Origin: Minisyncoccota bacterium
GTDB taxonomy: Bacteria; Patescibacteriota; Minisyncoccia; Phycocordibacterales; Phycocordibacteraceae
Direction of reading: 5' to 3'
DNA length: 64,000 nucleotides
Assembly (NCBI GenBank): GCA_035547315.1
Contig: DASZVH010000004.1
Location: 12,107-76,106 of the forward strand
The notes under the pieces are model-generated. The model had not been told where the DNA came from. It did not search any database and saw only the letters and a program-made list of their open reading frames with translations. Positions 27,754 to 57,760 of this stretch are shown in pieces (position 1 is the stretch's first letter; the number at the start of each line of letters is the position of its first letter). The position numbers were made by a program, and so were the translations under genes.

Positions 27754-27830
27754 CGCGCTTAACTAGGCCTTAACGGGCGCGCGCCTATACTCGGCTTCGG
27801 TCGAGATTACGAGCAGCGTAACGCAATCGT

Positions 27831-28064
27831 ATGGCGAGCAACAGCAACGACGGGCGCGGATTCGCCGGCATGGATCCGGATCGGCAGCGGCAGATCGCCT
27901 CCAAGGGCGGCAAGGCCGCGCACGAGAAGGGCACCGCGCACGAGTTCGACTCGCGCGAGGCCGCGGAAGCCGGCCGCAGGGGCGGCAAAGCATCGCACAG
28001 CTCGGATGGCCGGAACAACCGCGCCTCGGGTCGCGAGCGCGACAATCAAGGCCGCTTCGAGTAG
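27831..28064 (+). CDS. KGG-repeat stress-induced protein (YciG-like)
   Basis: Repeated GGKAxHxxG/KGG motifs (QRQIASKGGKAAHEKG, EAGRRGGKASH). A TATACT hexamer lies 41 nt upstream. Confidence 0.55.
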   Translation: MASNSNDGRGFAGMDPDRQRQIASKGGKAAHEKGTAHEFDSREAAEAGRRGGKASHSSDGRNNRASGRERDNQGRFE

Positions 28065-32236: not shown

Positions 32237-32422
32237 ATGGCACCTACCACACGCAGGAACAGGAAGAAAAGCGGCCGCGGCTTCGCCGCGATGGACCCGG
32301 AACGCCAGCGGCAGATCGCCTCGATGGGCGGCAAGAGTCAGGGACAGCGCAATAACCCGGGCAATTTCGCTAATAACCCTGAGCGCGCCGCGGCCGCCGG
32401 CCGCAAGGGCGGCCGCGCATAG
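32237..32422 (+). CDS. KGG-repeat stress protein, second paralogue
   Basis: GFAAMDPERQRQIASMGGKS ... AAGRKGGRA, homologous to the 27831 gene. Confidence 0.5.
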   Translation: MAPTTRRNRKKSGRGFAAMDPERQRQIASMGGKSQGQRNNPGNFANNPERAAAAGRKGGRA

Positions 32423-32456: not shown

Positions 32457-34004
32457 ATGAGCGTTGCAGCGCCTCCCGCCAAGCGGAAGACGGTAGTTTC
32501 AAGTTCGCCCACATCGGTCGCACGCTTCTTTAGGCGCCTCTCCACTTATCGAAGCGAAGATTGGTCGCGCGTCGAGCGGGCGAGTCGCGTATCTCTTTTC
32601 AAGCGAATGGCCGAGGAGGTGCCCGCATATCGGGCATTTCTCCGTACTCATGCGGTGAAGCCTGATCACATCCATACGTCCGATGACCTCTCGCTCGTAC
32701 CGGCAGTCACGAAGACGAACTACCTGCGTATCAACGAGCTCAAGGACCTTTCCTGGAAAGGCTCGACCCGCGCACCTTCCGTGCTGACTTCTACTTCAGG
32801 GTCGACAGGCAAGCCGACCTATTTCGCGCGGTCGCATATGGTCGATGAGCATTCCTCATACATCCACGAGATGCTCTTCCGCGCCAGTTCCCTGAAGGCG
32901 ACCGAATCAACATTGGTCATCGTCTGCTTCGGCATGGGCGTTTGGATCGGCGGCCTCATCACCTATCAGGCCTTCGAGCTGATGGCGCGCCGCGGGTATC
33001 CCTTCTCTATTATTACGCCCGGCATCAATAAGGCGGAGATCATAAAGGCGCTTAAGGATCTCGCGCCGCAATACGAGCAGCTTATCCTCACTGGCTATCC
33101 GCCGTTCCTCAAAGACGTGATTGACGAGGCGGTCGCGCAGGGGATCTCCTTCGACCGGCATCGGGTGAAGCTTCTCTTCGCCGCGGAGGCGTTCACCGAG
33201 CATTTTCGCGAGCATGTGGGGAAGCGGGCCAATGTCGGCAATCTCCTCACCGACGCGATCAACATCTATGGCAGCGCCGACTTGGGCACCATGGCCTTCG
33301 AGACGCCGCTCTCGATACTCGCGCGCCGGCTGGCAACGAGGAATACGAAGCTCTTTGCAGATCTTTTCCGCGGCACGACCAAAACGCCGACTCTGGCGCA
33401 GTTTATCCCCGATTTCGTATCATTCGAGGCTCCTAACGGCGAGATCCTCGTTACGGGCGAGAGCTCGCTCCCCCTGATGCGCTACTCGATCGGCGATCAT
33501 GGCGGCGTTTATACCTTTACCGAACTCCTCGAGCGCTTCGCAGCGCACGGTATCGACCTCAAGAAAGAGGCAAAAGCGGCAGGCCTCGGCCCCTCTATCT
33601 ATGAGCTCCCCTTCGTCTATGTCTACGAGCGCATTGACCTCTCGACCACGCTCTACGGCCTCCAGATCTATCCGGAGACGGTTAAGGAGGTTTTATTCGA
33701 CAAGCGCTTCTCTCCTCACCTTACCGGTAAGCTCACGCTCATCACCAAGTTCGACGAGAACCACGACCAATACCTCGAGATCAATATCGAGAAAAAGCCC
33801 AAGGCTGAGGTCAACAAGGTTTTCACCGCAGAACTCACCGCCGAGATCGTGAAGAACTTGCGCGAGAAAAACTCCGAGTTCCACGAGCTCTCCGACTTCC
33901 TGGGGAAGCGTGCGGAGCCCCAGCTCGTCTTCTGGAACTACGAGGACCCGCTCTATTTCCGCCCCGGCATCAAGCAGCCCTGGGTCGTGCGCCCCGCCAC
34001 GTAA
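32457..34004 (+). CDS. PaaK-like adenylate-forming enzyme (phenylacetate-CoA ligase / F390-synthetase family)
   Basis: P-loop TSTSGSTGKPTYF (ANL superfamily, PaaK-type GKPT). 515 aa. GC is ~10 points below the surrounding sequence. Confidence 0.55.
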   Translation: MSVAAPPAKRKTVVSSSPTSVARFFRRLSTYRSEDWSRVERASRVSLFKRMAEEVPAYRAFLRTHAVKPDHIHTSDDLSLVPAVTKTNYLRINELKDLSWKGSTRAPSVLTSTSGSTGKPTYFARSHMVDEHSSYIHEMLFRASSLKATESTLVIVCFGMGVWIGGLITYQAFELMARRGYPFSIITPGINKAEIIKALKDLAPQYEQLILTGYPPFLKDVIDEAVAQGISFDRHRVKLLFAAEAFTEHFREHVGKRANVGNLLTDAINIYGSADLGTMAFETPLSILARRLATRNTKLFADLFRGTTKTPTLAQFIPDFVSFEAPNGEILVTGESSLPLMRYSIGDHGGVYTFTELLERFAAHGIDLKKEAKAAGLGPSIYELPFVYVYERIDLSTTLYGLQIYPETVKEVLFDKRFSPHLTGKLTLITKFDENHDQYLEINIEKKPKAEVNKVFTAELTAEIVKNLREKNSEFHELSDFLGKRAEPQLVFWNYEDPLYFRPGIKQPWVVRPAT

Positions 34005-34025
34005 GCGCGTGCTAAACTTTGCGTA

Positions 34026-35045
34026 ATGTTCGGCTCCGCCGCTGAGTTTCTCGCTGCGTTTCCTTTTGAAGAGCCGCTTGGCGAACAGGTGAGCGCGCTC
34101 CTTGCGGGCGCGACGCGGGCGCCCTCCACCCACAACAGCCAGCCCTGGCGCTTTAAGATAGAGGCGCAGAGCGTGCGCATCTTTCGCGATACGAGCGTAA
34201 AGCTGCCGTACTCCGACCCGGTGAGCCGCTATGCGCATGTAAGCATCGGCTTCCTGCTCCAGCATCTTGCGGTGCTCGCGGATGCGCTCGGCATGGAGCC
34301 GCGCTTTGAGCTCGTGTGCCGCGAGGAGGAGATCGCGCGCGTCACCCTTGCTCCCGCAAAAGAGGGCAGCGCGCTCTCGCCGCTTGCCGAGGCCATCTTC
34401 ACCCGCAGGAACCGCCGCGGCGTCTTCACTGCCGCGAGCATCCCTGCGGAAATACTCGAGGCTGCGCAGGCAAACGACGCCTCGGCTCGCCTCGGGGTGG
34501 CGCCGGAGCTTCACGTCGAGAGCGACAGCGCGAAAGCTCGCGAGATAGGCGAGCTCACTTTCAAGAACATGGTGGCAGTCTATGAGCGGCCGGAATTCCG
34601 CGCGGAAATGTCCCGTTGGATCGCGCCTACCGGCTCGGGCCGCCTTACGGGCCTTCCCGGCTACTCGCTTAACCTGCCGATGCCGCTCACTTGGCTCTTG
34701 CCGCCCCTCATCAAGCACTTCAATATGGGAAAGCTTCCGGGCGCCGGCTCACGCGCGGCCATAGCCTCCGCCCCCGCGCTCTTTGGCTTTGCGAGCGCGG
34801 AGGAGCCGCGCGGGTGGGTGGCGGTGGGCTACGCCGCTTCCTACGCTGCACTCACGCTCGTCTCGCACGGGTACGACTACTCGGTCTTCGTCGCGACGAT
34901 CGAATACCCAGAGACACGCGCTCGGGTAGGTCAACTTCTCGGGCTCTCAATGCCGCTCCAATTCTTCTTCGTCGCAGGTAAACTCCCCGGTTCCGTTTCT
35001 TGGATGACGCCGCGGCTTCCGTTATCGGATAAAATAATGCCATGA
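34026..35045 (+). CDS. nitroreductase-family / SagB-type FMN-dependent dehydrogenase-like protein
   Basis: RAPSTHNSQPWRF nitroreductase signature. Extended 339 aa, longer than classic NfsA/B. Confidence 0.55.
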   Translation: MFGSAAEFLAAFPFEEPLGEQVSALLAGATRAPSTHNSQPWRFKIEAQSVRIFRDTSVKLPYSDPVSRYAHVSIGFLLQHLAVLADALGMEPRFELVCREEEIARVTLAPAKEGSALSPLAEAIFTRRNRRGVFTAASIPAEILEAAQANDASARLGVAPELHVESDSAKAREIGELTFKNMVAVYERPEFRAEMSRWIAPTGSGRLTGLPGYSLNLPMPLTWLLPPLIKHFNMGKLPGAGSRAAIASAPALFGFASAEEPRGWVAVGYAASYAALTLVSHGYDYSVFVATIEYPETRARVGQLLGLSMPLQFFFVAGKLPGSVSWMTPRLPLSDKIMP

Positions 35046-36079
35046 CTCTGCGACTCCTCGACCCGAATATTGCTGCCGATGCAGCTGAAATCGCAGACTT
35101 TCGAGCCGGAGGATGGTTTTTTGTCGATACATACGATGAACAGCTTGCCGAGCTGCGCCAGATTCGGGATCCGAAATCGATAGGGAAGGAATCTGCCCCG
35201 CTTGCCGCAGATCCAGGCGAGCGGATCGCTGTCTATGACTGGCGCAAGGCTCTTGTTCGGATCGTGGGCCCCGAGGCGTATCGAGAATTGCGAACTAATC
35301 GTAACCGCGACCTCCTCACGAGCGAGGAGCAAGAACGCTTCGGTGCTGCGCGAATCGGTTTCGCCGGGCTCAACGTCGGCAATCCGGGAGCAGTTGCAAT
35401 TGCGCTCGAGGGCGGGGCCTCCTCGATGAAGCTCGCAGACTTCGATCCGCTCTCGCTCACCAATCTGAATCGTTTTCGCGCAGGCCTGCCCGACCTCGGC
35501 GTCAACAAAGCTACTCTTACCGCGCGCCAGATCCTCGAAGTGGACCCGTATTACGAGCTTGAGCTTTATGAAAAGGGGTTGGCACCTGATACCGTCGAGC
35601 CGTTCCTTACGGCGCCCAAACTCGACCTCCTGGTCGAAGAGATGGATGCGCTCCCGCTTAAGCTCTCGGTCCGTGAAGTGGCTAAGAAAGCAGGCATTCC
35701 GGTCATAATGGTGACGGGCAATAGCGAGGGCGTGCTGCTCGACGTCGAGCGCTACGACACAGAGCCCGACTTGCCGCTCTTGAATGGCCTTATGGAGGAG
35801 CGTGTCCTTAGCGCTATCCGCGAACCCAAAGGCCTGATGATTCCCGCGGAAAAGGTGGCGCTCGCGCGCGACTTCATGGGCATCAAGTATCTCGACTCGC
35901 GCCTTGTCGATTCCTTCGCTAAGTTCGGCACCGAGCTCGTAGGCATCCCCCAGCTCGCGGAATCTTCTTTCATGCGCGGTGCGGCGCTCTGCTTCGCCGC
36001 TAAAGCCATCATCCTCGGGCGGCCGCTCCCGTCTGGGCGATATAGCTTCTCCTTCGCCGAACAATTAAAGCCCGTATAG
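35042..36079 (+). CDS. ThiF/MoeB/E1-like protein with a degenerate nucleotide-binding loop
   Basis: GFAGLNVGNPGAVAIALEGGASSMKLADFDPLSLTNLNRF aligns to the E1 Rossmann core and DFD..SNLNRQ. The GxGxxG loop is degenerate. About 100 aa N-terminal extension. ATGA overlap. Confidence 0.5.
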   Translation: MTLRLLDPNIAADAAEIADFRAGGWFFVDTYDEQLAELRQIRDPKSIGKESAPLAADPGERIAVYDWRKALVRIVGPEAYRELRTNRNRDLLTSEEQERFGAARIGFAGLNVGNPGAVAIALEGGASSMKLADFDPLSLTNLNRFRAGLPDLGVNKATLTARQILEVDPYYELELYEKGLAPDTVEPFLTAPKLDLLVEEMDALPLKLSVREVAKKAGIPVIMVTGNSEGVLLDVERYDTEPDLPLLNGLMEERVLSAIREPKGLMIPAEKVALARDFMGIKYLDSRLVDSFAKFGTELVGIPQLAESSFMRGAALCFAAKAIILGRPLPSGRYSFSFAEQLKPV

Positions 36080-36081
36080 AG

Positions 36082-37650
36082 ATGGAAGGCATACTCAACA
36101 TTGATCTGCTTTGGGTCGGACTCGCGGTAGCGGGGGCGGGCACGCTCGGCTTCACCATCTACTTTTCCGACCAGGAGAGCGCGACCGCGAAGGCGTTCCT
36201 CCTTTTCACTTCAGCAAGCATCTTCTGGAGTATCGCCAACTTCGCGAGCGCGCGCGTGAGCGACCCGACGGCCGTATTGTGGCTCATCCGGCTCGTTCTT
36301 TTCTGCGCCTCTTGGCACGCGTTCTCGTTCTTCCTCCTCGCGTATCAATTTCCCGAGCGTGCGGCACGGATCAGCAAGCGCCTCTTCTTCGCGCTTCTTT
36401 CTTGGACCGCGGTCGTCTCGATCGTCGTGCTTACGCCAGTCGTCTACGAGGCCGTCCTCGCCGTCTCGCCGTCCGTGAAAACGCAAACCGGCCCCGGCAT
36501 CGCTCTATTCGGCCTTACAGTCCTCTCGTATATCGGCGCTGGTCTTTATCAGCTCACGCGAAAATTCTTCCGCTCCGGCGGAGCCGAACGGCACCAGATG
36601 GAGGCGGTACTTACCGGCACTGCGCTTACGTTCGTATTCCTTATCGTCTTCGATTTCCTCTTTCCGGCGTTCTTCGACATTCCGACTCTGGTTCCCTATG
36701 GCGGGCTCTTCCTTCTCCCGTTCATCATGGGGGTTTCTTATGCCATCCTCCATTATCGGCTCTTCAATCTGCGGGTCGCGCTCTTCGGTCTCCTGACCTT
36801 CCTTCTTGCGACCGCGACGTTCTTCGACATCCTTCTCTCCGATACCGCCTGGTTGGTGCTCTATCGCGTCGTCGAGCTCGGGCTCGTCCTTACCGCCGGC
36901 ATCTGGCTTATCAAGAGCATGGTGCGCGAGTTCGAGCTCGAGCGAGAGCTCCAAGAGACCAACGCGCGGCAGGAGGGGCTTATCCACTTCATCGGGCATG
37001 AGGTGAAGGGCTTCCTCACCAAGGCGCAGGGCGTCTTCTCGCTCATGAGCGAGGGGGAGCTGGGGCCCGTGCCGGAGTCTATGCGTCCCTTCGTCGAGCG
37101 CGGGCTCGCGGATACCAAAGACGGCGTGGCGAGCGTCTCCGACATCCTCAAGGCGAGCAATTTGAAGAAGGGCACGGTGAATTATGAAAAAAAGCCCCTC
37201 GATCTCGCCGCACTCGTCAAAGAAACAGTAGAGAAAGAGAAGCCGACCGCAGAAAGGAAGAAGCTCGCGCTCCTCCTCGATATCGAGGGTGAAGGGTACC
37301 AGATGACCGGCGACGGCCCGCAAATAGCCGACCATGTGCTGCGGAATCTCATTGAGAACTCGATCAACTACACGCCCACAGGCTCGATCCACGTCTCGCT
37401 TAAGAAAGCGCCGGGTAAGTATGTCTTTGCGGTCTCGGACACCGGCATCGGTATAAGCGCGGAGGATAAAGCGCGGCTTTTCACCGAGGGCGGGCACGGC
37501 AAAGATTCGCAGAAGGTGAATGTCCACTCGACCGGCTACGGGCTCTTCATTGCCAAACAGATCGTCGAGGCGCACGGCGGCAGCATCTCCGCCTCATCCG
37601 AGGGCCCCGGCACGGGCTCGACCTTCACCGCCGAGTTCCCGGCGGGATAA
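36082..37650 (+). CDS. membrane sensor histidine kinase (7TM N-domain + HisKA + HATPase_c)
   Basis: H-box FIGHEVKG, N-box NLIENSINYT, G1 DTGIGI and G2 GYGLFIAKQ. No cognate response regulator is adjacent. Confidence 0.8.
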   Translation: MEGILNIDLLWVGLAVAGAGTLGFTIYFSDQESATAKAFLLFTSASIFWSIANFASARVSDPTAVLWLIRLVLFCASWHAFSFFLLAYQFPERAARISKRLFFALLSWTAVVSIVVLTPVVYEAVLAVSPSVKTQTGPGIALFGLTVLSYIGAGLYQLTRKFFRSGGAERHQMEAVLTGTALTFVFLIVFDFLFPAFFDIPTLVPYGGLFLLPFIMGVSYAILHYRLFNLRVALFGLLTFLLATATFFDILLSDTAWLVLYRVVELGLVLTAGIWLIKSMVREFELERELQETNARQEGLIHFIGHEVKGFLTKAQGVFSLMSEGELGPVPESMRPFVERGLADTKDGVASVSDILKASNLKKGTVNYEKKPLDLAALVKETVEKEKPTAERKKLALLLDIEGEGYQMTGDGPQIADHVLRNLIENSINYTPTGSIHVSLKKAPGKYVFAVSDTGIGISAEDKARLFTEGGHGKDSQKVNVHSTGYGLFIAKQIVEAHGGSISASSEGPGTGSTFTAEFPAG

Positions 37651-39096: not shown

Positions 39097-39170
39097 GTCG
39101 GGGTAGCTCAGTTGGTAAGAGCGTGGCATTCATAACGCCAAGGTCGTGGGTTCGACTCCCACCCTCGACA
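39097..39170 (+). tRNA. tRNA with CAT anticodon (elongator Met or Ile2)
   Basis: Cloverleaf: acceptor GTCGGGG/CCTCGAC, D-arm GCTCAGTTGGTAAGAGC, anticodon loop TTCATAA, T-loop TTCGACT. Overlaps a spurious track ORF. Confidence 0.7.
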
Positions 39171-39178
39171 CTGCAATT

Positions 39179-39363
39179 TTCCTCAGGATTTGGTAGGATG
39201 CGTTCACGCTTGCGGTAGTAAGCCCGCAGACGGGCTTGCTCCCGCTGCGTTCGGAAAAACCAGAAGCAAGCTTCTGATTTTCCTCACTTGCGGGAGTAAG
39301 TAGGCTTTCTCCCGCTGCGTTCGCTCGGAAAGAAAGAAAACGCCTTTCTTTCCTCACTCACTT
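39179..39363 (+). repeat. 2.5 tandem structured repeats, each ending in a copy of the tRNA-Asp 5' end
   Basis: Units are ~75 nt: CTCCCGCTGCGTTCG...(internal palindrome)...TTCCTCACT(CAC)TTGCGGGAGTA. The last unit runs directly into the tRNA-Asp acceptor stem. Confidence 0.6.
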
Positions 39364-39437
39364 GCGGGAGTAGCTCAATTGGTTAGAGCGCCGCCCTGTC
39401 ACGGCGGAGGTTGCGGGTTCAAGTCCCGTCTCTCGCG
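39364..39437 (+). tRNA. tRNA-Asp (GTC)
   Basis: Acceptor GCGGGAG, anticodon loop CTGTCAC, T-loop TTCAAGT and discriminator G. Confidence 0.85.
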
Positions 39438-39819
39438 CACCATAGGACGAATGGAGCGCAAAGCTTCATTTTGTCTTGCAGTTTCTTCGTTTATCTCCAG
39501 TTCTAACGAACGATACCGTTCTTCGATCGCGGGATAATCAGAAACCGTCTTCGTGTGCCAGTGCCTTTTCAATCAAGATTTTGACCCGCCGATCGTAATC
39601 CTTGGGAGGCTTCTTTTCCCGTCCAGTGGCTTGTCCGCGCATTACTGAGATTGTCTGTCATTCCTCGCCCTTAGGCAAACTCGCCCGGTTCGCGTAAAAA
39701 GCTAGCGCCAGCGCGAGTTTATGTTCAGGTCGCAGCTTTCCTCGACTTTTCGCCAAACTCGCGCCACCGACGAGCCGGTGCGACCTGGTGCGAGTAGGTT
39801 ACTGCACTGGTGCAGTAAA

Positions 39820-40179
39820 TCATCCAATTTTCCCAAATCGCGCGTCATTGATCATCTGTTCCCATGACGCGAAATAGAGCGGTGTGATGCGAGATGCAAT
39901 CCCCATGCCACTCGTGAAGATCGAGAAGTGCTGGATCTTTGCCTGCCGCTCCCTCGCGCCTTGATTGTAGAGAACGTAGAGATGATCCACTCCATTGCCG
40001 ACGCCTTTTTTCGAGTTCACACTCGTGATGTCGGCGAGCGGAATGTCGAGTACTTTTGTGCCGTCCTTTTTCTCAAACGATAGGCTCGTTCGCGTGAGCA
40101 CTAAACTTCCGTTTTTGCGACGTAGAAAACCGCCGAGATAGGTGAGCTTATTCTCTTTCTTGAGTATCTGATCCGCCAT
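39820..40179 (-). CDS. hypothetical protein (low-GC patch)
   Basis: 119 aa. A perfect 9 bp inverted repeat (TTACTGCAC/GTGCAGTAA) sits at its stop. Confidence 0.3.
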   Translation of the reverse strand: MADQILKKENKLTYLGGFLRRKNGSLVLTRTSLSFEKKDGTKVLDIPLADITSVNSKKGVGNGVDHLYVLYNQGARERQAKIQHFSIFTSGMGIASRITPLYFASWEQMINDARFGKIG

Positions 40180-40746
40180 AATTGCGTGTTAGTGAGTAAA
40201 CACGGCGGGTACCACAAAACCCGCCACTAGGGTGGGGCTTGCGCCCCCATACCGGTTTCCCGATACGGCCAATCACGACGAGCCCTAATGACGGGTTTTC
40301 TGGTCGTGATTGGACTTCTGAACCATGCCAGCAACTCACGTCGCTGGTTTAGGCCCCGCTGCTTTCGCAGCTCTTTTATTCTACAGTGGTGGTTCCAGTC
40401 AAAGTGCCAGTATTGTCTTAAGGAAGGCCACCGAGTAATCGGCGGCCTTTATGCAACTTCGGCCATGCCGGTCCGGTACTATAAACATATGAATAAATTC
40501 ACTGACCTAGTGCTGATTATCGGCTTCTTAGCGGTCGACTTCCTCTTTTTCCATGACCTCTTTAAGGCGGGGGAGATAATTACCTTGCCGCAGTACCTTA
40601 CCGGCCTTCTCTCGATTATCGTGATCCTCCGCGCGCTCTGGTCGCTCTTTGGCGCTGAGTCCGCCGCGCGCCTCGCGTAACTCTTCCCCAACATCCGCTC
40701 ATAGCGCCCCGCGTGCGGGGCACTGCGAGCTATACTAGAGAGCACG

Positions 40747-41079
40747 ATGAACATCGGGCAGCAGCACATCCATGCGAGGCGGCGACTCTTCAAACATCTT
40801 GAGCCGTTCCCCTCCAAGCACTTTGGCAAGCGCATCCTCGACTACGTTATCTATGTTGCTGCGATCGCGCAGCCTCTTGCGCTTGTCCCGCAAGCGCTCC
40901 TGGTGCTTGACGACGGCAGCGCCTCGGGCGCCTCTCCGCTTACCTGGGGCCTTCTTGGCATTATCGGCATCATGTGGGTCTTCTACGGCATCGTGCATAA
41001 AGAGAAGCCGATTGTCCTCTCCAACACGCTCTCGGTTGTGCTCGACTTCACGATCGTCTACGGAATCCTCCGCCACTAG
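40747..41079 (+). CDS. SemiSWEET / PQ-loop sugar transporter family protein
   Basis: AIAQPLALVPQALLV (PQ motif) and WVFYGIVHKEKPIVLSNTLSVVLDFTIVYGIL match the three-TM SemiSWEET pattern. An N-terminal extension is possible. Confidence 0.55.
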   Translation: MNIGQQHIHARRRLFKHLEPFPSKHFGKRILDYVIYVAAIAQPLALVPQALLVLDDGSASGASPLTWGLLGIIGIMWVFYGIVHKEKPIVLSNTLSVVLDFTIVYGILRH

Positions 41080-41137
41080 CGAGAGGGCGCGCGTGCATGT
41101 TAGTATCGCTTTTGCGCCGATCTAGCGCACATTTGTT

Positions 41138-41210
41138 GCCGATGTAGCTCAGTTGGTAGAGCAGCTCCATGGTAAGGAGCAGGTCGCCAGTTCGATCCTG
41201 GCCATCGGCT
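41138..41210 (+). tRNA. tRNA-Thr (GGT)
   Basis: Anticodon loop ATGGTAA, T-loop TTCGATC and acceptor GCCGATG/CATCGGC. Confidence 0.85.
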
Positions 41211-41235
41211 CACGAGTAAGGTATAAAAATCGTAC

Positions 41236-41308
41236 GCCGGAGTAGCTCAGTTGGTAGAGCGAGGGTATCGTAAACCCTAGGTCGTCGGTTCAATCCCGAC
41301 CTCCGGCT
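41236..41308 (+). tRNA. tRNA-Thr (CGT)
   Basis: Anticodon loop ATCGTAA, T-loop TTCAATC and acceptor GCCGGAG/CTCCGGC. Confidence 0.85.
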
Positions 41309-41309
41309 C

Positions 41310-49846: not shown

Positions 49847-49920
49847 TGCCGGGTCGTCTAATGGTAGGACAACAGACTCTGGATCTGTTTATCTTGGTTC
49901 GAGTCCAAGCCCGGCAGCCA
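49847..49920 (+). tRNA. tRNA-Gln (CTG) with encoded CCA
   Basis: Acceptor TGCCGGG/CCCGGCA, anticodon loop CTCTGGA, T-loop TTCGAGT. Preceded by a 9 bp perfect palindrome (GCGCCACGC/GCGTGGCGC). Confidence 0.85.
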
Positions 49921-49994
49921 ATCAGGACATCGTACGGATGACCTAGAGGGGTCAATTCCTTTACTAAACCTTCTGGACATGTTTGCATTTAGCT

Positions 49995-51047
49995 ATGAAG
50001 GAGAAATCTCTGCCTAAACCGAATACGCAGGCCCTAAGTTGGTTTTATGGTGAGAGCAAGAAAGGGAATCTTATACTTGATCCCAAGTACCAAAGGAATC
50101 CGATTTGGTCCATTGGCCAGAAGTGTTTTCTGATAGATAGCTTGATTTCCGGGTCGCCCATTCCACAGGTCTTTATTAACATTAAAACAAAGACTGTTAG
50201 TAAAGTCCGACAAACCGACTATGAAGTAGTTGATGGACAACAACGGCTGCGCGCGATTTTGGAGTTCATGGAAGATCAGTACCCTTTAATCAAAACAACT
50301 GCCAAGTCCTACCCCGTTTCCGGCATCTATGCGCCACACATTGGCAAAAAATATTCCGAGTTACCCTCCGAATTACAGGATGCGATTTGGAACTATCCTC
50401 TTGCTGTTCAAGAGTTACGAGATTGGACGGATGTCGAAATAAGAGCCCTTTTTAGACGGCTCAATTATGTTGTAGAAAAATTGAACAAACAGGAATTACG
50501 CCACTCTCAGTACTTTGGTGAATTTGTTATTGCGGCAGAAGAGTTAAGCAAGGATCCTTTTTGGGATGAAATTGATTTCTTTTCCCGCCATGATTCGCAA
50601 CGAATGAAAGACGTGGAATTTGTTAGCGAGCTGCTCGTCCTTCTCATGGATGGCCCCCAAGAAGGGCAGTCTACTCTGGATAGATTTTATGCTGATTACG
50701 ATGTTCTTTTTCCGAAGAAAAAGAATTATCTGTCAAAATTTCATCAAACCCTCCGCTCCTTAAAATCAATAGAGACGTACCTGGCCAGCAGTCGCTTTGT
50801 AAAGAAAGCGGACTTTTACGCTCTATTTGGGGCTGTGTCGAGTTTAAATGAGCTTGTCAAACAAGCAGTCAACCTTTCTTACGCTGAGAACGAGCTAAGC
50901 AAATTTGAAAATCAACTTTCAAAATCTCCCGAAAGTCTGACGGGAAAAGTATTGAAATATTACAATACTGTCATCGAAGGTCCTGCAAAGAAAGCTAAAC
51001 GGGAAGAGCGCATCAAAATACTTTCAGGCTTGGTAGCTAAAGATTGA
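49995..51047 (+). CDS. DUF262 (ParB-like nuclease domain, DGQQR motif) protein
   Basis: YQRNPIWS...VVDGQQRLRAI signature of the DUF262/GmrSD N-terminal domain. ATG at 49995 (the track starts at TTG 49983). Confidence 0.75.
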   Translation: MKEKSLPKPNTQALSWFYGESKKGNLILDPKYQRNPIWSIGQKCFLIDSLISGSPIPQVFINIKTKTVSKVRQTDYEVVDGQQRLRAILEFMEDQYPLIKTTAKSYPVSGIYAPHIGKKYSELPSELQDAIWNYPLAVQELRDWTDVEIRALFRRLNYVVEKLNKQELRHSQYFGEFVIAAEELSKDPFWDEIDFFSRHDSQRMKDVEFVSELLVLLMDGPQEGQSTLDRFYADYDVLFPKKKNYLSKFHQTLRSLKSIETYLASSRFVKKADFYALFGAVSSLNELVKQAVNLSYAENELSKFENQLSKSPESLTGKVLKYYNTVIEGPAKKAKREERIKILSGLVAKD

Positions 51048-51742
51048 AATGGATGGCAACTACTACGGCAAAAAAAGTTGTCAACAAATTTACCAGCCGG
51101 CTCACTAAGGTTGGAGGATACTACGGCGAGCTGATATTAGCCGTTAACTTAAAGAGGCATCAGGCAGCTTTAGAGACTATGTTGGCTGAACAGTTCGTAT
51201 TCAATATTGTGGTGTTTTGGGAGGTGTTTCTTAACGAACTTCTGCTCACTTATCTTGTTGCGTCTCCAAAAAGGTTTCTTTCCAATCTCAAAGACAGGAT
51301 GGGCCAGTCTGTAAAAGAGCGATATGGAGGCGGGGCTGCCCAAATGCTCAAATTTAATTCTCCTAGATCAATCTCACTGGCAAAGGCCGCTGCACTTGCT
51401 GACCCAAAAGATTTTAATCTAACCGCAGAGTCTGCTGATCAGCTTACGAAACGAGCCAATGACTTGCTCGAAGCGAAATTCGCTAAACCCTTTACCCTAG
51501 ATCCCGATGATGCTCAATTTTTGGATTATTTGGTTTGTCTTAGAAATTTTCTTGCACACAGAAGTACATCTTCTAGAAATAAATTGAGAATAGCAGTGTC
51601 TGCACTCCAAAATTCGAACAACGATCTGAACGGCTCCATTTCAAACATAGGAACTTATCTGAAGACCACTAACACGTCAAACAAGACCCGAGCCTTGATA
51701 ATTTCAGAGCGTATGGTCCAAATAGCAAATAAGCTGGTTTAA
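51044..51742 (+). CDS. HEPN-like protein (RNxxAH motif)
   Basis: LVCLRNFLAHRS fits the Rx4-6H HEPN motif. ATGA overlap with the DUF262 gene. Confidence 0.45.
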   Translation: MKWMATTTAKKVVNKFTSRLTKVGGYYGELILAVNLKRHQAALETMLAEQFVFNIVVFWEVFLNELLLTYLVASPKRFLSNLKDRMGQSVKERYGGGAAQMLKFNSPRSISLAKAAALADPKDFNLTAESADQLTKRANDLLEAKFAKPFTLDPDDAQFLDYLVCLRNFLAHRSTSSRNKLRIAVSALQNSNNDLNGSISNIGTYLKTTNTSNKTRALIISERMVQIANKLV

Positions 51743-53079
51743 GAGTCCAGTATGACTTTTTTGTTTATGAGTGTAAGCCGGCTTCTAAATGACTGCATTA
51801 ACTCTCGCTTCTCCTCCAGTGAACCCTCCTTAAGAAGGTACTTCGCATAAGATCGTAAATCTGTTTTGCTCTGAGCATCGATTTGGTCTGCGCCGATGCC
51901 GAGCACTTTATTGCGGAAGTGATTGAAGCGCCCCATTTCTTTCTCAAGCTTCTGTTTAATGCCGAGAGTATTGAGATCCAACTTATCCACGATCTCTAAA
52001 AGCTGAGCAATCAACTCTTCTTCCCGTAGGTATGTGTTCTTGCAATTCTTGTCATAGAACCTCGTGCAGCCGTAGTAGATATACTTTGCTGTAGTCCCAT
52101 CCGCCAGACCCTTGAACTTCTCTTCAGCTGTTACACCGGAATTGCACAATCCGCATTTCATCAAGCGTGTGAAGGCGAATTCTTTGTACATCTGGCCATG
52201 TGGTTTGTGCGAGTCCAATTTTTCCTGAACCTTCTTGTAAAGTTCTTGGCTGATCAAAGGCTCGTGCCGGCCCACGTACCACTTGCCACTTTTCTTTGGG
52301 TACTCAATGAGACCACAGTAGAACGGGTTACGTAAGACCGTATGGATATTGCTCAACGAGAAGGGCTTCCCATTTCGAGTTTGAAACTTCACCTCGTCCT
52401 TTAACCACCGAAAGAGGCGTCTGCCACTCCACTTTTCGTAGGCAACCTTTTCGAACATCAATCGGATAATGTGAGCCCGCTGCGGATCGAGAACAACGTG
52501 GCATTTCATTGTTCGATCCGGATGGTTGATATAGCCAGTGGGCGCTACGCTCGGCCATAGGCCCATTTCGATGCGGGTGCGGAGACCGCGCTTCACGTTC
52601 ATGCTCTTGTTGTCGTTCTCGAGCTTCGCTTGCGAGCACAGGATCATCAGCAAGAATTTCTCACTGGGATTGTTTGTAAATTTCTGGCCGTATGTCCTCA
52701 CCTCAACTAGTTTTTTCTGGTCCATCAAGTCAACGATCGAGCCAAGATCGCCGGCGTTTCTTGAAAGGCGATCCGGATGCCATGCGAGTATGGCGTTGAA
52801 CTTGCCCTCCTTCAGTTCACGGATAAGCTCATTAAAAACTGGTCGTTGGGCAGTGTCCTTGGCCGAGTGAGATTCGCGCTTTATTTCGCTCACAGTCAAC
52901 CCGTCTCTCTGGGCGAGAGTCAGCATCTCTTTTATTTGGGAGTCTATCGAGAGTGCCTGCTTTTCGTCGGATTCGGTCGATTTTCGTGCATACAGGCAGT
53001 ATTTAAGGGGAACGACCTCTACAGGCGCTTGGGCGCCCGTTTGGCCTGCGTATAGTCCCACTTCCGGCATACAGCACAC
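51739..53079 (-). CDS. large serine recombinase (resolvase N-domain + recombinase domain + Zn ribbon)
   Basis: YARKSTESDEKQALSIDSQ catalytic region, DRLSRN motif and a C-terminal CGLCNSG...YYGC...C zinc ribbon. Exact start uncertain. Confidence 0.85.
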   Translation of the reverse strand: MCCMPEVGLYAGQTGAQAPVEVVPLKYCLYARKSTESDEKQALSIDSQIKEMLTLAQRDGLTVSEIKRESHSAKDTAQRPVFNELIRELKEGKFNAILAWHPDRLSRNAGDLGSIVDLMDQKKLVEVRTYGQKFTNNPSEKFLLMILCSQAKLENDNKSMNVKRGLRTRIEMGLWPSVAPTGYINHPDRTMKCHVVLDPQRAHIIRLMFEKVAYEKWSGRRLFRWLKDEVKFQTRNGKPFSLSNIHTVLRNPFYCGLIEYPKKSGKWYVGRHEPLISQELYKKVQEKLDSHKPHGQMYKEFAFTRLMKCGLCNSGVTAEEKFKGLADGTTAKYIYYGCTRFYDKNCKNTYLREEELIAQLLEIVDKLDLNTLGIKQKLEKEMGRFNHFRNKVLGIGADQIDAQSKTDLRSYAKYLLKEGSLEEKRELMQSFRSRLTLINKKVILDS

Positions 53080-53185
53080 ATACAGCCCGGAAGCCGTTCA
53101 GAAGTCTAGTGCCCTGAAAGGGGATAACTACACCCCACTTATCTCGCAATAGCCATAGAGACCGATTTGCGATAGTCTTGGATTA

Positions 53186-54049
53186 ATGCCTAAGAAGAAA
53201 AGGACTAGGAGACTGCGTGGAAGTGATTTCTTGATGAGATGGTCTCAGGGAGCATGGAGCGAGGACCAACTCGTGGATGCAGTAAACGCGACCCAAAAGT
53301 TTTTTGCGTTGCCGTATGGTCCTAGCGGTACAGCGCCAGACGATGATCCGGTGGCCTATGAGAAATACTTTGAAAGATTAGACGCAGCCGGTCTTGGTTC
53401 GATCAAGCGACCAGACCTCCTTATTTTCCCGGAGTCGGCTCGCAGCAAGGTTAATAGTATGGTTGAGCCTCTTGGTGGTGTCGCGGAACTGCCTTTTCAC
53501 ACGGAAGATGAGGAGCACATAAAAGCACTCCTTTCTTTGGCAATCATGGCAGTCGAATGCGAGAACAGCTTATGGAAGGCGAAACAGATGCCGAACTACA
53601 CCTACACCCTCAAGCCACAGAAGAGGCTTGGAGGTAAGCCCGGTTTAGCTAAAAATGCAGTGCTTCCTACGATCATCATGAAAGACGAGGATAGAGGCCC
53701 GCTCACAGAATGGCAAAAACGAAATCCGAAACTCCCGCTCCATATTTGGCATGCGTTTTTTGACGAAGCATACGGCATTTCGTTTGCCGATATGAATCGG
53801 CTTATTGACGATGGGACCATCGAGCCTTCTGTTCAAGAGTTTTCAAACGCAGGACAGCCCTCGACAAAGAAAACTCTATACAAAGCGCATTATTACCTTG
53901 GCTATCCGCTCGCGACCTCAACGCAGGACCCGGCGCTAAAAGCTCAAACTATAGTGGATAAGAATGGCCACATTTACCCTTACGTTACCTTCTCTGGAGG
54001 CAAGATGGCTCTCCGGGATGATGCTGTGAGGGTTTTGGAGAGTCTGTAG
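53186..54049 (+). CDS. hypothetical protein, candidate restriction endonuclease
   Basis: 287 aa with no family match. Lies 20 nt upstream of, and co-oriented with, the methyltransferase. Contains PD...E.K-like residues (RPDLLIFPE...ECENSLWKAK). Confidence 0.3.
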   Translation: MPKKKRTRRLRGSDFLMRWSQGAWSEDQLVDAVNATQKFFALPYGPSGTAPDDDPVAYEKYFERLDAAGLGSIKRPDLLIFPESARSKVNSMVEPLGGVAELPFHTEDEEHIKALLSLAIMAVECENSLWKAKQMPNYTYTLKPQKRLGGKPGLAKNAVLPTIIMKDEDRGPLTEWQKRNPKLPLHIWHAFFDEAYGISFADMNRLIDDGTIEPSVQEFSNAGQPSTKKTLYKAHYYLGYPLATSTQDPALKAQTIVDKNGHIYPYVTFSGGKMALRDDAVRVLESL

Positions 54050-54069
54050 GAGGAAGGTAAAATAAAGGG

Positions 54070-55566
54070 GTGAAAACCCGAGAACAATTAAGAGAGAAGG
54101 GACAATTCTGGACGCCGAACTGGATAGCTCAGAGCATGGTTAGTTATGCTTTGGGGAATGGCTCGAATCAACTTTTTGATCCCGCTCATGGGCTTGGTGC
54201 GTTTTTTGTCGCAGCAAAGGAACTGAGCAAGAAGTTTAAAAGAAGAATAACCTTCTTTGGTACTGACATAGACTCTGATCTAGTGTCTGAAATTAAAGAA
54301 CAAGGGATTCTTGAAGCCAAGGATTTAAAGAATCTACGAGTTGCTGACTTTGTAGATATTGCTTCCCAAAAGAAATACAAGTCCATAGTCGTAAATCCTC
54401 CATATATCCGCCATCACCGCATTCCTCTTGAAAAGAAACTGGCTCTGAAGAGAATCGCTCTACAACATCTTGGTCGTGAATTAGATGGCAGAGCAGGCCT
54501 CCATGTGTACTTTTTAATACTAAGTCTACTTGCACTTGAAAAAGACGGAAGGTTATCTTTCATTGTTTCCTCTGATATATGCGAAGGGGTATTTGCGAAT
54601 CCACTTTGGCAGTGGATCGGAAAGAACTATCAAATAGAAGCAGTTCTGACTTTCAGTGGTAAAGCTAGTCCATTTCCGGGTGTAGATACAAACCCAATTA
54701 TTTTCTTCATTAGAAACGCAAAACCAAAAGCAGTTCTTTCGTGGGCTCGAGCGAATGGAATAAATCCCGAGTCTATCAATAAATGGGTTGATTCTGGTTT
54801 TAAAACATCTCTAGCGGATGGATCAGATTTATTAGTGTTTGAACGTTCACTGAATGAGGCGCTTACCACGGGCCTTTCTCGACTTCCACAGACCGAAGAA
54901 CACAAATTCACTCTAGGAGATTTTGTGTATGCGATGCGAGGCATTGCTACTGGGAATAATGAATTCTTTTTGCTGGATCAAGAGACCGTTGATAGATTCG
55001 GAATTCCTCAAACGTATTTAGTTCCAGCAATTGCTCGAACACGAGATGTCGCAGGAGATATGGTTGATGAGTCTACTTTTACAGCTATTGTCGAAAAAGG
55101 AAGACCACATTACCTACTTTATATTGATGCTGACAGCCTAGATGGCCTTCCAAAACCGATAAGAAATTATATTGCCCACGGAGAAGAACTTGGAGTACAC
55201 AAGACCGCACTAATCTCTGCCCGAAGGGTCTGGTTCAAAATGGAAAAAAGAAATCCACCGCCGATCCTTTTTGCCTACTTAGGAAGGAGAAGTTCAAGAT
55301 TTATCGTCAACAAAGCCGGAGCGCTGCCTCTCAATGGTTTTCTCTGCATCTATCCTAAGGACACTGAAGCATCATACTTAAATAAACTAATACAGATAAT
55401 TAATCGCGAAGAGGTATTAAAGAACCTGTTCCTGGTCGGCAAATCATACGGATCCGATGCAGTAAAAGTAGAGCCTCGTGCGATAGAGCGATTGCCCATT
55501 CCGGAGAAGCTTCTCAAGGAAGTAGGACTTATACCCCCTAGGAAGGGTCAGCTAGCTTTAGTTTGA
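54070..55566 (+). CDS. N6-adenine DNA methyltransferase (gamma-class, Eco57I/TaqI-like) with C-terminal target-recognition domain
   Basis: GQFWTP N-terminus, motif I FDPAHGLGAFF and motif IV VVNPPY. 498 aa. Confidence 0.8.
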   Translation: MKTREQLREKGQFWTPNWIAQSMVSYALGNGSNQLFDPAHGLGAFFVAAKELSKKFKRRITFFGTDIDSDLVSEIKEQGILEAKDLKNLRVADFVDIASQKKYKSIVVNPPYIRHHRIPLEKKLALKRIALQHLGRELDGRAGLHVYFLILSLLALEKDGRLSFIVSSDICEGVFANPLWQWIGKNYQIEAVLTFSGKASPFPGVDTNPIIFFIRNAKPKAVLSWARANGINPESINKWVDSGFKTSLADGSDLLVFERSLNEALTTGLSRLPQTEEHKFTLGDFVYAMRGIATGNNEFFLLDQETVDRFGIPQTYLVPAIARTRDVAGDMVDESTFTAIVEKGRPHYLLYIDADSLDGLPKPIRNYIAHGEELGVHKTALISARRVWFKMEKRNPPPILFAYLGRRSSRFIVNKAGALPLNGFLCIYPKDTEASYLNKLIQIINREEVLKNLFLVGKSYGSDAVKVEPRAIERLPIPEKLLKEVGLIPPRKGQLALV

Positions 55567-55567
55567 T

Positions 55568-55822
55568 TTAGAGAAAATAGCCAACGCTTTTACTGTAGAG
55601 CTTTGCGAGTTTATTGAGCCAGATGGCCTCTACTCGCAATTCTCCAAGTTCGATTTTTGAAACCCAGGACTGGGAGCACCCGAGCTTTTCAGCCACCTCT
55701 GCCTGTGTCAGCCCGGCTTCTATCCGAGCTTTCTTTAGCCGCTTCACAAACCCAGCTCGTTCATCGGTATGAATAGATTTCTTCATACCTATAAGGCTGT
55801 ATTCCGTTATGGGATATTCCAA
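55568..55822 (-). CDS. XRE-family helix-turn-helix transcriptional regulator
   Basis: LTQAEVAEKLGCSQSWVSKIELGE Cro/C1-type HTH. Could be the controller of the adjacent restriction-modification genes or the island repressor. Confidence 0.7.
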   Translation of the reverse strand: MEYPITEYSLIGMKKSIHTDERAGFVKRLKKARIEAGLTQAEVAEKLGCSQSWVSKIELGELRVEAIWLNKLAKLYSKSVGYFL

Positions 55823-55937
55823 AGTGGAATATTTATGCTACGATAGGGCCACTTAGTCCATAAGGGGACAACCGACTACGAGGAAGTCCAGGACGAAGGT
55901 AAGTTATAGAAGTTTTATTTATAAGATAACGAAATAT

Positions 55938-56228
55938 ATGGCTCGTAAACCAAAGCCTCAGTGCCCAAATTGTAAGCAGTACAGGTTGGACGAAAAGCGT
56001 GGTATCTGGCTGCTACTCGCATCAGGGTGCTTTTTCGGTCCGCTCATGGTCGCCAGTGTCTTGTTTATTACAATCATCGGTATCCCGATTGCCTTGTTCT
56101 TTCTGGGTCTCTACATCATCACGATCCCACTCGGCATTATTGCTATAATCGTGGCGTTTCGTACTCACGGCTACCGGTGTAGAAATTGCCACTGGGTTGG
56201 CGATAACCCAATCATTGAATCGGCATGA
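55938..56228 (+). CDS. small membrane protein with split zinc ribbon (CPNC ... CRNC)
   Basis: 96 aa with two TM helices flanked by CxxC pairs. Confidence 0.4.
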   Translation: MARKPKPQCPNCKQYRLDEKRGIWLLLASGCFFGPLMVASVLFITIIGIPIALFFLGLYIITIPLGIIAIIVAFRTHGYRCRNCHWVGDNPIIESA

Positions 56229-56340
56229 GGCATGGCAATTCTGTCGTCACAAAGCGCTCGTGAGCTTCAAAGAATAATCAAAGAGGCTACGGAGCGCGAT
56301 GTGTCGCTCGGAGAAGCCTATGCGATTTGGGGATACCTAA

Positions 56341-57060
56341 TCAAACTCCTGCAGTTGTTGTGGAAGGTAGAACACCGCGATGAGGTACCCATACCGCCAC
56401 AACAGATGTCATTGTTTGGTCGGTTCGGAAACGCAAGTGCGGATCACAGGAGTCGTAAAAGATATTCTCGGAGTTAGGGATAGAGAATGCTTCTTTGGTT
56501 TTGCCTTCTCGATCCCATCGTTCTTTAAATTCAAGCAAGGTCTCTTCTGGGTCCGTGGGATGTTCGAGTTCGTGCATTTCTTTCAGCTCCCTATTTTCAT
56601 TCTTGACTTTAGCAAGCAGGTCAACGATATCTCTGAGGTGGAAAAGGCCCTCGGTTTGTTCCGGTTCAGGAAGATTGAGTACCAGAAAACGGATATCGTT
56701 CGGGTGAAGAAGGAGCCGAGGTTTCTCAACCTCCTGTTCTTTTGGAAAATTATGAAAATACTGCAGCCACAACTTCTGGCTTGCCGAATTACCTTGCACC
56801 GCACTACGCAAAATACTTTCAATTACGAAGCTGGTCTTTTCGAAAGCCCACTCTTTTCGTAAGGCTGTCACGCGAGACTGGAAGTCGGAGCGTTTTTTCC
56901 AGGCAGTTGGCGTGTTAATGCTGATTCCGTAGTATTCAGAAAATTGCTGCTGGGTTTCAATCCCGAGCCGGTGACGCTCGGAAGGGGGCATGGAGGTCCA
57001 GAGGATAAACTCCTCATAGACGCCATCTTTTTTCACACCTCGATTTTCACGGTTGTTCAT
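56341..57060 (-). CDS. hypothetical phage-like protein (N-terminal HTH, terminase-small-subunit-like)
   Basis: ETQQQFSEYYGISINTPTAWKKR resembles terS/Nu1-type HTH segments. 239 aa, low GC. Confidence 0.3.
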   Translation of the reverse strand: MNNRENRGVKKDGVYEEFILWTSMPPSERHRLGIETQQQFSEYYGISINTPTAWKKRSDFQSRVTALRKEWAFEKTSFVIESILRSAVQGNSASQKLWLQYFHNFPKEQEVEKPRLLLHPNDIRFLVLNLPEPEQTEGLFHLRDIVDLLAKVKNENRELKEMHELEHPTDPEETLLEFKERWDREGKTKEAFSIPNSENIFYDSCDPHLRFRTDQTMTSVVAVWVPHRGVLPSTTTAGV

Positions 57061-57169
57061 GGTTGTGATCTGCTTAATCCCTTGAGAATCGCTTGGGATT
57101 AAGCGGTATCTTCAATATTACTCCCGGAAATACCTGTTGTGAGGCCCTCTCTCTGTGGACCAACGAAAA

Positions 57170-57360
57170 CCCGACCTAGACGGGTCGAGATCTTGGTCGG
57201 ATAGGCGGTAGAATAGCCTTACGACACCTCACATTACTTCGCACCGAACCAAAGTAGCCAGCAGTCTAGAAAAGTATCGAAGGACCTATACGGGTCAATA
57301 AATAAGCCATCGCGAAAATTAGTTCGAGATTTCTAGACCCATACCCGTCTAGGAAATCGA
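57170..57360. repeat. iteron-like repeats: three copies of GACCTA(G/T)ACGGGTC (one inverted) plus three TCTAGA palindromes
   Basis: Approximate positions 57172-57189, 57283-57296 and 57336-57353. Lies in the 350 nt non-coding region of the island. Coordinates +/-2 nt. Confidence 0.5.
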
Positions 57361-57378
57361 ACTTCTAGAAAATGTGTA

Positions 57379-57409
57379 AAGGGCCGACCCGGTTGGATCG
57401 GCCCTTTGC
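57379..57409 (-). terminator. rho-independent terminator after the 57413-57760 gene
   Basis: AAGGGCCGAcccggttggaTCGGCCCTTT. On the minus strand a T-rich tract (tttacacatttt) follows. Confidence 0.6.
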
Positions 57410-57412
57410 GCG

Positions 57413-57760
57413 TCATGCGCTCGCCATCGCTTTCGGCACCATCGCGCCCAGCTCATCGGGACTCATGCCGAGTTCCTCGGCGAGCTTGAGCGCGTTGACG
57501 AGCATCTTGGTAGTCGCGATACGAAGGTTCTCTTCGTTCATCGCGCCGCCGTGATCCTGCGCCTCCGTCTCTGTCGCGATCTTGCCAGCCGACTTGCTGA
57601 TGTGCTTCAGGCTGTGCGAGACGGCGAAGGCACGAACCTTCTCCGGAGTGCTCAGATCGACGTTCGGATAGTGCTGATTCGTGAAGGTGTACCTCGCGCC
57701 GATGAAGGCCATCAGGGAAGCGAGATTCGGTTCAGGCGTTCCGGTCATAATGACCTCCAT
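57413..57760 (-). CDS. hypothetical protein (possibly MazG-like NTP pyrophosphohydrolase fold)
   Basis: 115 aa all-helical with an acidic ETEAQDHGG segment. Weak similarity only. Confidence 0.25.
   Translation of the reverse strand: MEVIMTGTPEPNLASLMAFIGARYTFTNQHYPNVDLSTPEKVRAFAVSHSLKHISKSAGKIATETEAQDHGGAMNEENLRIATTKMLVNALKLAEELGMSPDELGAMVPKAMASA

Follow-up and report, generated by a model that had tools for sequence, protein, structure and literature searches.

What do four genes make that stand packed on one strand in a bacterium of the Candidate Phyla Radiation (CPR, Patescibacteria), a group with genomes of about 1 Mb and very little biosynthesis? They lie in a 64,000-nucleotide stretch of a Minisyncoccota bacterium (GenBank assembly GCA_035547315.1, contig DASZVH010000004.1, positions 12,107 to 76,106 of the forward strand; this whole stretch is the window of what follows), and a first-pass annotation, made from the sequence alone, had placed the four packed plus strand open reading frames (ORFs) exactly and had named the right superfamily for all four proteins, PaaK-like, nitroreductase, E1/ThiF-like and sensor kinase. 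It also saw in them a possible uncharacterised modification pathway, and the gene set has indeed turned out to be strongly co-conserved. Our answer, held with a confidence slightly on the favourable side of even, is that the cassette encodes an oxazolone-synthetase-type small-molecule pathway coupled to the sensor kinase. The genes, called A to D here, and a promoter-like site are as follows.

32457-34004, plus strand: A, a PaaK-like ANL adenylate-forming enzyme of 515 aa
34026-35045, plus strand: B, an Acg-like FMN-dependent oxidase of 339 aa, from the nitroreductase superfamily (FDO subgroup)
35042-36079, plus strand: C, a ThiF-like protein of the TrzS/Rv1355c type and predicted ATP-dependent cyclase, of 345 aa
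36082-37650, plus strand: D, a histidine kinase with a seven-transmembrane (7TM) receptor, of 522 aa
32420..32448, plus strand: a promoter-like site, TAGGCA-17-TGnTATGAT, ending 9 nt 5′ of the ATG of A, a consensus match only

Bacterial oxazolone synthetases were discovered only between 2020 and 2025. A ThiF-like protein and an FDO, fused or adjacent, form an experimentally defined oxazolone synthetase that acts on small N-acyl amino acids (bioRxiv 10.1101/2020.06.11.147165; PMC10404671; PMC12856293). The founding ThiF-nitroreductase fusion is OxzB of Pseudoalteromonas rubra (bioRxiv 10.1101/2020.06.11.147165), and among ThiF-like enzymes with a small-molecule substrate a recent review names only OxzB (PMC12596934). 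TrzS (Rv1355c) turns N-acyl tryptophan into N-acyl tryptazolone by ATP-dependent cyclisation and then O2-dependent desaturation, and the D217A substitution in the Mycobacterium smegmatis protein abolishes cyclase activity (PMC12856293). TyzB (ThiF) with TyzC (FDO) is a split version from M. tuberculosis (PMC10404671), and clusters of an N-acyl amino acid synthase (NAS), a ThiF protein and a nitroreductase occur in Planctomycetota and others (Stieleria, Thalassotalea, M. kyonggiensis; PMC12479983).

C is the member of the cassette that points most directly to this chemistry. It matches the Pfam ThiF model (4e-12) and the NF005901 model of the Rv1355c family at 1.4e-85, its residues 4-343 aligning with positions 14-340 of the 722 in the model, N-terminal extension included, and it is 36-41% identical over 80-99% of its length to actinobacterial Rv1355c-family/ThiF proteins, with coverage of at least 80% in 15 of the 18 records. 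By sequence the closest solved structure is the tRNA-modifying cyclase TcdA, and the match to the TcdA model NF011696 (9e-6) is far weaker than that to the TrzS family. The first-pass annotation had described an E1-like protein with an N-terminal extension and a degenerate ATP loop; the extension (85-90 extra residues) and the non-canonical loop are both there, and it is the degeneracy that does not hold. The glycine loop, AGLNVGNPGA at residues 108-117, is paired by HMMER with the TcdA loop VGIGGVG through a one-residue deletion, and its GL(S/N)VG signature is found also in Rhodococcus and Streptomyces homologs of C. As far as alignments can tell, the unusual loop is a conserved trait of the Rv1355c family, the ATP-dependent TrzS-type proteins included, and not decay. 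Eleven residues of C (D133, D135, N141, N143, R144, K156, E199, E200, D202, K207 and R211) show no variation in any of the three alignments, and D202, which lies in an EEMD motif, R144, K156, D133 and N143 are invariant across 45 sequences, giving a complete adenylation site. D202 aligns to D200 of the Rhodococcus Rv1355c-family protein, and by way of that homolog probably corresponds to D217 of M. smegmatis TrzS.

Because C has a single, non-conserved Cys (317), no CxxC and a non-canonical loop, it is not an ordinary MoeB/ThiF with an intact P-loop; that identity, or one as an ordinary E1, was rejected also on a loop one residue shorter than that of TcdA and on the lack of a ubiquitin-like gene or other conserved small-protein partner near the cassette. 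An AlphaFold2 model of C has a mean predicted local distance difference test (pLDDT) score of 93.9, and the best Foldseek neighbours of its core are AclA (9egb), ThiF, PaaA, MoeB, MccB and TcdA. MccB and PaaA modify peptides, and the Foldseek alignments to them cover about 260-270 columns only. The N-terminal extension, residues 4-84, is modelled as beta-alpha-beta-alpha-beta-beta-alpha. The recognition element (RRE) of ribosomally synthesized and post-translationally modified peptide (RiPP) pathways has three strands followed by three helices, and the order modelled for C looks unlike that, no RRE model having been compared.

B matches the NF047509 model of the Acg family at 8e-50 (B residues 25-336, model positions 2-318 of 319), the C-terminal half of the Rv1355c-family model at 9e-13 and 47 bits, and the PDB structure of Acg, 2ymv, at 1.8e-9. 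The segment APSxxNxQPW (32-41) and R127, R131, W198 and R330 are invariant among B, the other cassette FDOs and the FDO half of the Rhodococcus Rv1355c-family protein, and the FMN-site motif is kept; B is predicted to be a C-alpha/C-beta desaturase. It had earlier been called SagB-type, which the Acg-family match corrects; no SagB model is among its NCBIfam matches at E ≤ 0.1, the presence of such a model in the library copy being unverified, and by NCBIfam it is not NfsA-like either.

Since C fits the Rv1355c family, B is an Acg-like FDO and the pairing is that of TrzS, TyzB-TyzC and OxzB, the two proteins are by homology a split, order-swapped ThiF-cyclase/flavin-desaturase ‘oxazolone synthetase’ and not a SagB/E1 pair of the kind that serves thiazole/oxazole-modified microcins (TOMMs). 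The first-pass annotation had taken TOMM, azoline and microcin maturation as the closest analogy; nitroreductase plus ThiF is, however, the oxazolone synthetase signature, and the likeness to the TOMM or microcin B17-type sets (SagBCD, McbBCD) stays at the superfamily level, an E1-like protein adjoining a flavoenzyme of nitroreductase fold. The TrzAS system of mycobacteria and Rhodococcus (Rv1356c/Rv1355c; PMC12856293) has in common with C the N-terminal extension, the GL(S/N)VG loop and the catalytic Asp motif, and with the cassette an Acg-like FDO partner. It differs in having one fused TrzS where B and C are separate with the FDO first, a GNAT-like TrzA where the cassette has a PaaK-like ANL enzyme, no 7TM histidine kinase in the operon and an actinomycete rather than a CPR host. 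TyzACB (PMC10404671) and the clusters of PMC12479983 resemble the cassette in placing a stand-alone ThiF (TyzB) beside a stand-alone FDO (TyzC) in one operon. In the TyzACB pathway an N-acyl aromatic amino acid is cyclised at the expense of ATP and desaturated with O2, and the cassette is predicted to follow these two kinds of step. These clusters depend on an N-acyl amino acid synthase that uses acyl-coenzyme A (acyl-CoA) or acyl carrier protein (ACP); none was found with the CPR cassette, which has instead a ligase, a kinase and, often, an amino-acid dehydrogenase or aminotransferase. OxzAB has the ThiF-nitroreductase pairing in common with the cassette, though OxzB is fused and is reported in alpha-, beta- and gammaproteobacteria, the N-acyltransferase OxzA is present and there is no sensor kinase.

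What is new here is the PaaK-like ligase in place of the GNAT/FeeM acyltransferase of all known systems, and the 7TM kinase within the cassette. In the open-access literature no paper was found that links CPR/Patescibacteria to ThiF-FDO chemistry or oxazolones, and none that reports ThiF-FDO clusters with a PaaK-like enzyme or a kinase.

Protein A has no Pfam match, AMP-binding included. Its N-terminal half matches the NCBIfam PaaK model TIGR02155 at 1.1e-15 and 57 bits (the cutoff is 646, so it is far below equivalog level), and by sequence it matches the PDB structure of PaaK, 2y4o, at 3e-10. The AlphaFold2 model (pLDDT 84) finds PaaK2, PaaK1 and BT_0428 as the best Foldseek neighbours (E 1e-21, TM scores 0.57-0.68; 0.57/0.66 for PaaK2), followed by the 2-hydroxyisobutyryl-CoA ligase HCL and then the amide/ester ligase ClxA. 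With these enzymes A has in common a two-domain PaaK-like fold and all the adenylation motifs, though it is only 15-19% identical to them and about 80 residues longer. The ANL motifs are TSTSGSTGKP (111-120), YGSADLG (271-277), IGD (345-347), ERxD (391-394) and K506, and among 20 homologs TSTSGSTGxP, YGxA (271-274), GD (346-347), ERxD and K506 are invariant. Because these motifs are invariant and a PaaK-type fold is predicted, A is very probably an active adenylate-forming enzyme; it is predicted to activate a carboxylic acid and probably to ligate the acid to an amine. PaaK-like ligases of the ClxA type form amides and esters without CoA (PMC9400959, PMC12519233). No paa catabolic genes are present in any locus annotated. 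The family of A comprises 480 clusters at 50% identity (exhaustive HMMER, E ≤ 1e-30), so that a likely function can now be assigned to a large Pfam-less family (at least 480 clusters) whose members are labelled ‘hypothetical’ or ‘phenylacetate-CoA ligase family’.

D has a HisKA_7TM domain (residues 15-230, 9e-14) and a HATPase_c domain (residues 417-521, 2.5e-23), and an H-box, HFIGHEVKG with His306, can be read from its sequence. It had been described as an orphan, which is right insofar as a single query with a receiver domain detected no response regulator within the 64-kb window; as an add-on to the enzymes it was misjudged, for D is a conserved member of the cassette, and receiver-only (CheY-like) regulators adjoin the cassette in 18 of 108 related loci, often in the order of kinase, regulator, regulator.

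The linkage of these genes was followed in related loci gathered as A-family hits in species-representative genomes and, as an independent sample, through C in metagenome contigs, the two being pooled. Genes of the A family stand at no fewer than 588 loci in the species-representative genomes, and the best 80 of these at least 588 loci appear to be nearly all from Patescibacteria of many classes, where the record titles name a taxon. Searches of the related loci with A to D by tblastn recover the full gene set almost everywhere. The gene orders are ACBD, the commonest, then ABCD as in the window, then BCAD, BACD and CBAD, and the set is kept despite the shuffling. Loci that appear to read ACD hold a divergent FDO in the gap, that of locus L005 matching the C-terminal half of the Rv1355c model at 9e-55. 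In the commoner relatives the order is A-ThiF-FDO-kinase, with the same ThiF-then-FDO sequence as in the TrzS fusion. The genes A, C and D are on one strand in 108 of 108 loci, D having been among the selection criteria for that set, and the span is 8 kb or less in 102; when sampling is by C, A is found in 30 of the 31 loci with full flanks and D, on the same strand, in 31 of 31. Recurrence of one gene set at 108 or more independent loci puts the arrangement far outside what chance would give.

Two kinds of partner recur. One is a dehydrogenase of the ELFV family (PDB leucine dehydrogenase 3.9e-74, tryptophan dehydrogenase 2.7e-66, and phenylalanine dehydrogenase; NCBIfam ScyB-like 1.6e-79), the other a HisC-like aminotransferase. 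One or other is present in 42 of 108 loci, and in 27 of the 65 with adequate flanks (about 40%), either directly 5′ of A or embedded between C and A. Neither was found in the 64-kb window, whose cassette is the minimal core version. Other recurring neighbours are alpha/beta-hydrolases and a gene weakly resembling methyltransferases. Several relatives are fused: amino-acid dehydrogenase (AADH) to A (P0261), A to ThiF (P0265), ThiF to A (P0340) and AADH to A to ThiF (P0383). The last is a 1242-aa protein joining a Leu/Phe-type AADH, a PaaK-like ligase and a ThiF domain, found in two assemblies (L167, 5001-8729, and L168, 819-4547) with an FDO gene on its 5′ side and genes for an alpha/beta-hydrolase and a 7TM kinase on its 3′ side. 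The fusion of A and ThiF to a dehydrogenase of free amino acids is an argument that the substrate is a small molecule rather than a peptide.

Proteins about 70% identical to the A of the window pair either with a B-C module of the window type or with a C′-B′ module, in which the ThiF protein C′ is about 31% identical to C, and this suggests module exchange or differential loss. Locus L149 (1436-8243) has two ThiF/FDO pairs, one ligase and one kinase in the order B-C-A-C′-B′-D. Other insertions are more miscellaneous. At L009 (8799-12973) genes for SrmL, a PheS-related ‘mystery ligase’ (NF051887, 8e-118), an IS30 transposase, a ClpP-like protease and a PP-loop protein lie between the ligase and ThiF genes, and at other loci a Peptidase_S9 gene does. 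On a Streptomyces plasmid (L086, 5122-8036) a 622-aa protein has a TrzS-like ThiF part at its C-terminus and is followed by a gene for beta-ketoacyl-ACP synthase III; its N-terminal 290 aa are not an FDO and have no NCBIfam match, and the locus may be another undescribed variant of the pathway.

No GNAT/FeeM-type acyltransferase (OxzA, TyzA, TrzA, NasY) is present in the cassette of the window and none recurs across 160 related loci, nor did tblastn at E < 0.1 find, in the window or those loci, a match to the product of a candidate TrzA-like gene, one without annotation that diverges from the Rhodococcus Rv1355c-family gene on its upstream side. In the pathway that we propose, A would adenylate a carboxylic acid and join it to the amine of an amino acid without acyl-CoA, giving an N-acyl amino acid; in the relatives with a dehydrogenase or aminotransferase one building block would plausibly be a hydrophobic amino acid or its 2-oxo acid. 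C would then adenylate the free alpha-carboxylate, and attack by the amide oxygen would close an oxazol-5-one ring, as with TrzS, TyzB and OxzB, after which B would desaturate the C-alpha/C-beta bond using O2, as do TyzC and the FDO domain of TrzS. D may sense the product or a linked membrane state, or control the pathway, in relatives perhaps together with the regulators alongside. CPR bacteria are not known to synthesise fatty acids, and so an ATP-dependent ligase replacing an acyltransferase dependent on acyl-CoA or ACP would make sense.

Several points weigh against this proposal, in which the steps, the product and the role of the cassette are predicted by comparison with characterised relatives. 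The NF047509 score of B, 170 bits, falls under the curated Acg-family cutoff of 199, and B is weakly similar to the FDO half of TrzS, with 27% identity over 133 aa and the 47 bits to the Rv1355c-family model already given. A might simply make acyl-CoA for an acyltransferase that is not linked to the cassette; CoA is in use in at least one related genome, which encodes an acetyl-CoA synthetase. A different ring, for instance a diketopiperazine or another azlactone-like species, could come from these enzyme classes, and the window has neither the dehydrogenase nor the aminotransferase. A cassette so widespread in reduced genomes might have a housekeeping role, and that D responds to the product is a proposal which may or may not describe its part.

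The alternative that survives best keeps the enzymes and changes the chemistry: A would ligate two amino-acid-derived units, C would lead to a diketopiperazine or other lactam and B would desaturate in the manner of AlbA. Nitroreductase-family enzymes do desaturate diketopiperazines in albonoursin biosynthesis (as cited in bioRxiv 10.1101/2020.06.11.147165), ThiF-like enzymes make several kinds of ring (PMC12596934), the dehydrogenase and aminotransferase partners point to building blocks that are amino acids only, and the B of the window is more Acg-like than TrzS-like. We nevertheless regard this as unlikely, since the characterised family closest to C, by a wide margin, makes oxazolones and no gene resembling a cyclodipeptide synthase is present. 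Adenylation of alpha-amino acids is not known from PaaK-type enzymes.

It is less probable still that A is an ordinary acyl- or arylacetyl-CoA ligase, with N-acylation by an acyltransferase encoded elsewhere, which would make the cassette a standard OxzA-type pathway with a helper ligase. The nearest characterised relatives of A, namely PaaK, BT_0428 and HCL, are CoA ligases, and some related genomes have CoA-using enzymes; yet the acyltransferase that is adjacent in known systems does not recur near the cassette in the 160 loci, and A is fused directly to a ThiF cyclase in three architectures, which suggests that its product is handed straight to the cyclase.

A housekeeping function, in which the cassette would serve cofactor synthesis or salvage, or a nucleic-acid modification needed by many CPR bacteria, with the kinase unrelated but syntenic, is very unlikely in our estimate. 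Consistent with it are the size of the A family, the many loci, flanks that include nrdAB, hisS, dnaK-dnaJ-grpE and tRNA synthetase genes, and TcdA as the best sequence match of C among solved structures. That match is far outweighed by the one to the TrzS family, however, the kinase accompanies the enzymes in five or more gene orders, and the accessory complement differs between loci (a dehydrogenase or aminotransferase, hydrolases, a second pair of ThiF and FDO), a pattern typical of specialised metabolism.

A RiPP of TOMM or microcin kind, or a protein C-terminus modified by an E1-like C that binds the peptide through its extension of about 85 aa and by a flavoenzyme that oxidises an azoline, is the least credible reading, for although MccB and PaaA are structural neighbours of C and a peptide C-terminus is chemically an N-acyl amino acid too, the lack of a SagB match and the fusion to a free-amino-acid dehydrogenase speak against it, as, more tentatively, does the predicted fold of the extension. 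C keeps its complete adenylation site, and the cassette of the window leaves at most 21 nt between genes. Across about 80 loci a search for conserved ORFs of 20-89 aa, up to 2 kb from the cassette, found none (BLASTP, E < 1e-3; very short or very divergent peptides could escape it), and no YcaO is among the annotated gene clusters recurring across more than 80 loci, no YcaO model having been run directly. The first-pass annotation had likewise seen neither precursor peptide nor YcaO.

If the oxazolone pathway is what the cassette encodes, ThiF-cyclase/FDO chemistry extends to the CPR, and the acyl-CoA-dependent first step may be replaceable by an ATP-dependent PaaK-like ligase, sometimes AADH-fused. 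What bacterial oxazolones do for their producers is acknowledged in the literature to be an open question, signalling and stress adaptation having been proposed for the M. tuberculosis pathways (PMC12856293), and the genetic link to a 7TM sensor kinase is a testable handle on the purpose of such molecules. A bolder and distinctly doubtful extension is that the cassette is a self-contained chemical signalling circuit, in which a CoA-independent synthase set, comprising an amino-acid dehydrogenase or aminotransferase, the PaaK-like ligase, the ThiF cyclase and the flavin desaturase, makes an oxazolone or dehydro-amino-acid signal derived from an amino acid, and the co-transcribed 7TM kinase with the CheY-like regulators is its receptor. 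Were this so, bacteria credited with hardly any specialised metabolism would have an autoinducer-type system, and bacterial oxazolones a first receptor and physiological role.

Within the cassette A and B are 21 nt apart, B and C overlap by 4 nt and C and D are separated by 2 nt. The region has two promoter-like matches against 1.4 expected from shuffled sequence, which is not above chance; if the site before A is used, the operon mRNA would have a very short leader or none. On the 5′ side the neighbours are, in order, genes for ClpP, a KGG-repeat protein, nrdA, nrdB and a second KGG protein, and on the 3′ side hisS on the opposite strand; the immediate neighbours are NrdA, NrdB, the KGG protein and HisRS. 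The paralogous KGG-repeat stress-protein genes (27822-27992 and 32237-32422, 53% identical) bracket nrdAB, as had been noticed at the outset, and the second of them sits between nrdB and the promoter-like site of the cassette; beside the cassette in other genomes KGG genes are not conserved. A PADLOC search for anti-phage defence functions in the cassette yielded just weak, generic E1-E2 and HATPase matches, and that idea was dropped.

The cassette had been put about 10 points below its surroundings in guanine-plus-cytosine (GC) content and taken as horizontally acquired. The measured dip is 2-4 points (0.597 against flanks of 0.635 and 0.617, with B alone at 0.64), and horizontal acquisition is unsupported by a difference of that size; GC at third codon positions is 0.67-0.77, below the 0.82-0.90 of the flanks. 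In a lower-GC stretch, among genes for tRNA-Met, tRNA-Asp and two tRNA-Thr (39097-41309), a LOOT RNA lies at 40234-40355 on the minus strand (Rfam RF03000, scoring 81.5 bits where the gathering score is 46.4), and the ORFs called there have no Pfam match. Within 49847-58000 of the window an island of low GC content (42-50%, compared with about 63%) begins directly after tRNA-Gln (49847-49920). It carries genes for a GmrSD-like nuclease (49983-51047), a large serine recombinase (51739-53079, minus strand), an AccI-like restriction enzyme (53186-54049) and an Eco57I/N6 methylase (54070-55566), and this region of 50-58 kb is probably an integrated mobile defence island, the genuine foreign island of the window.

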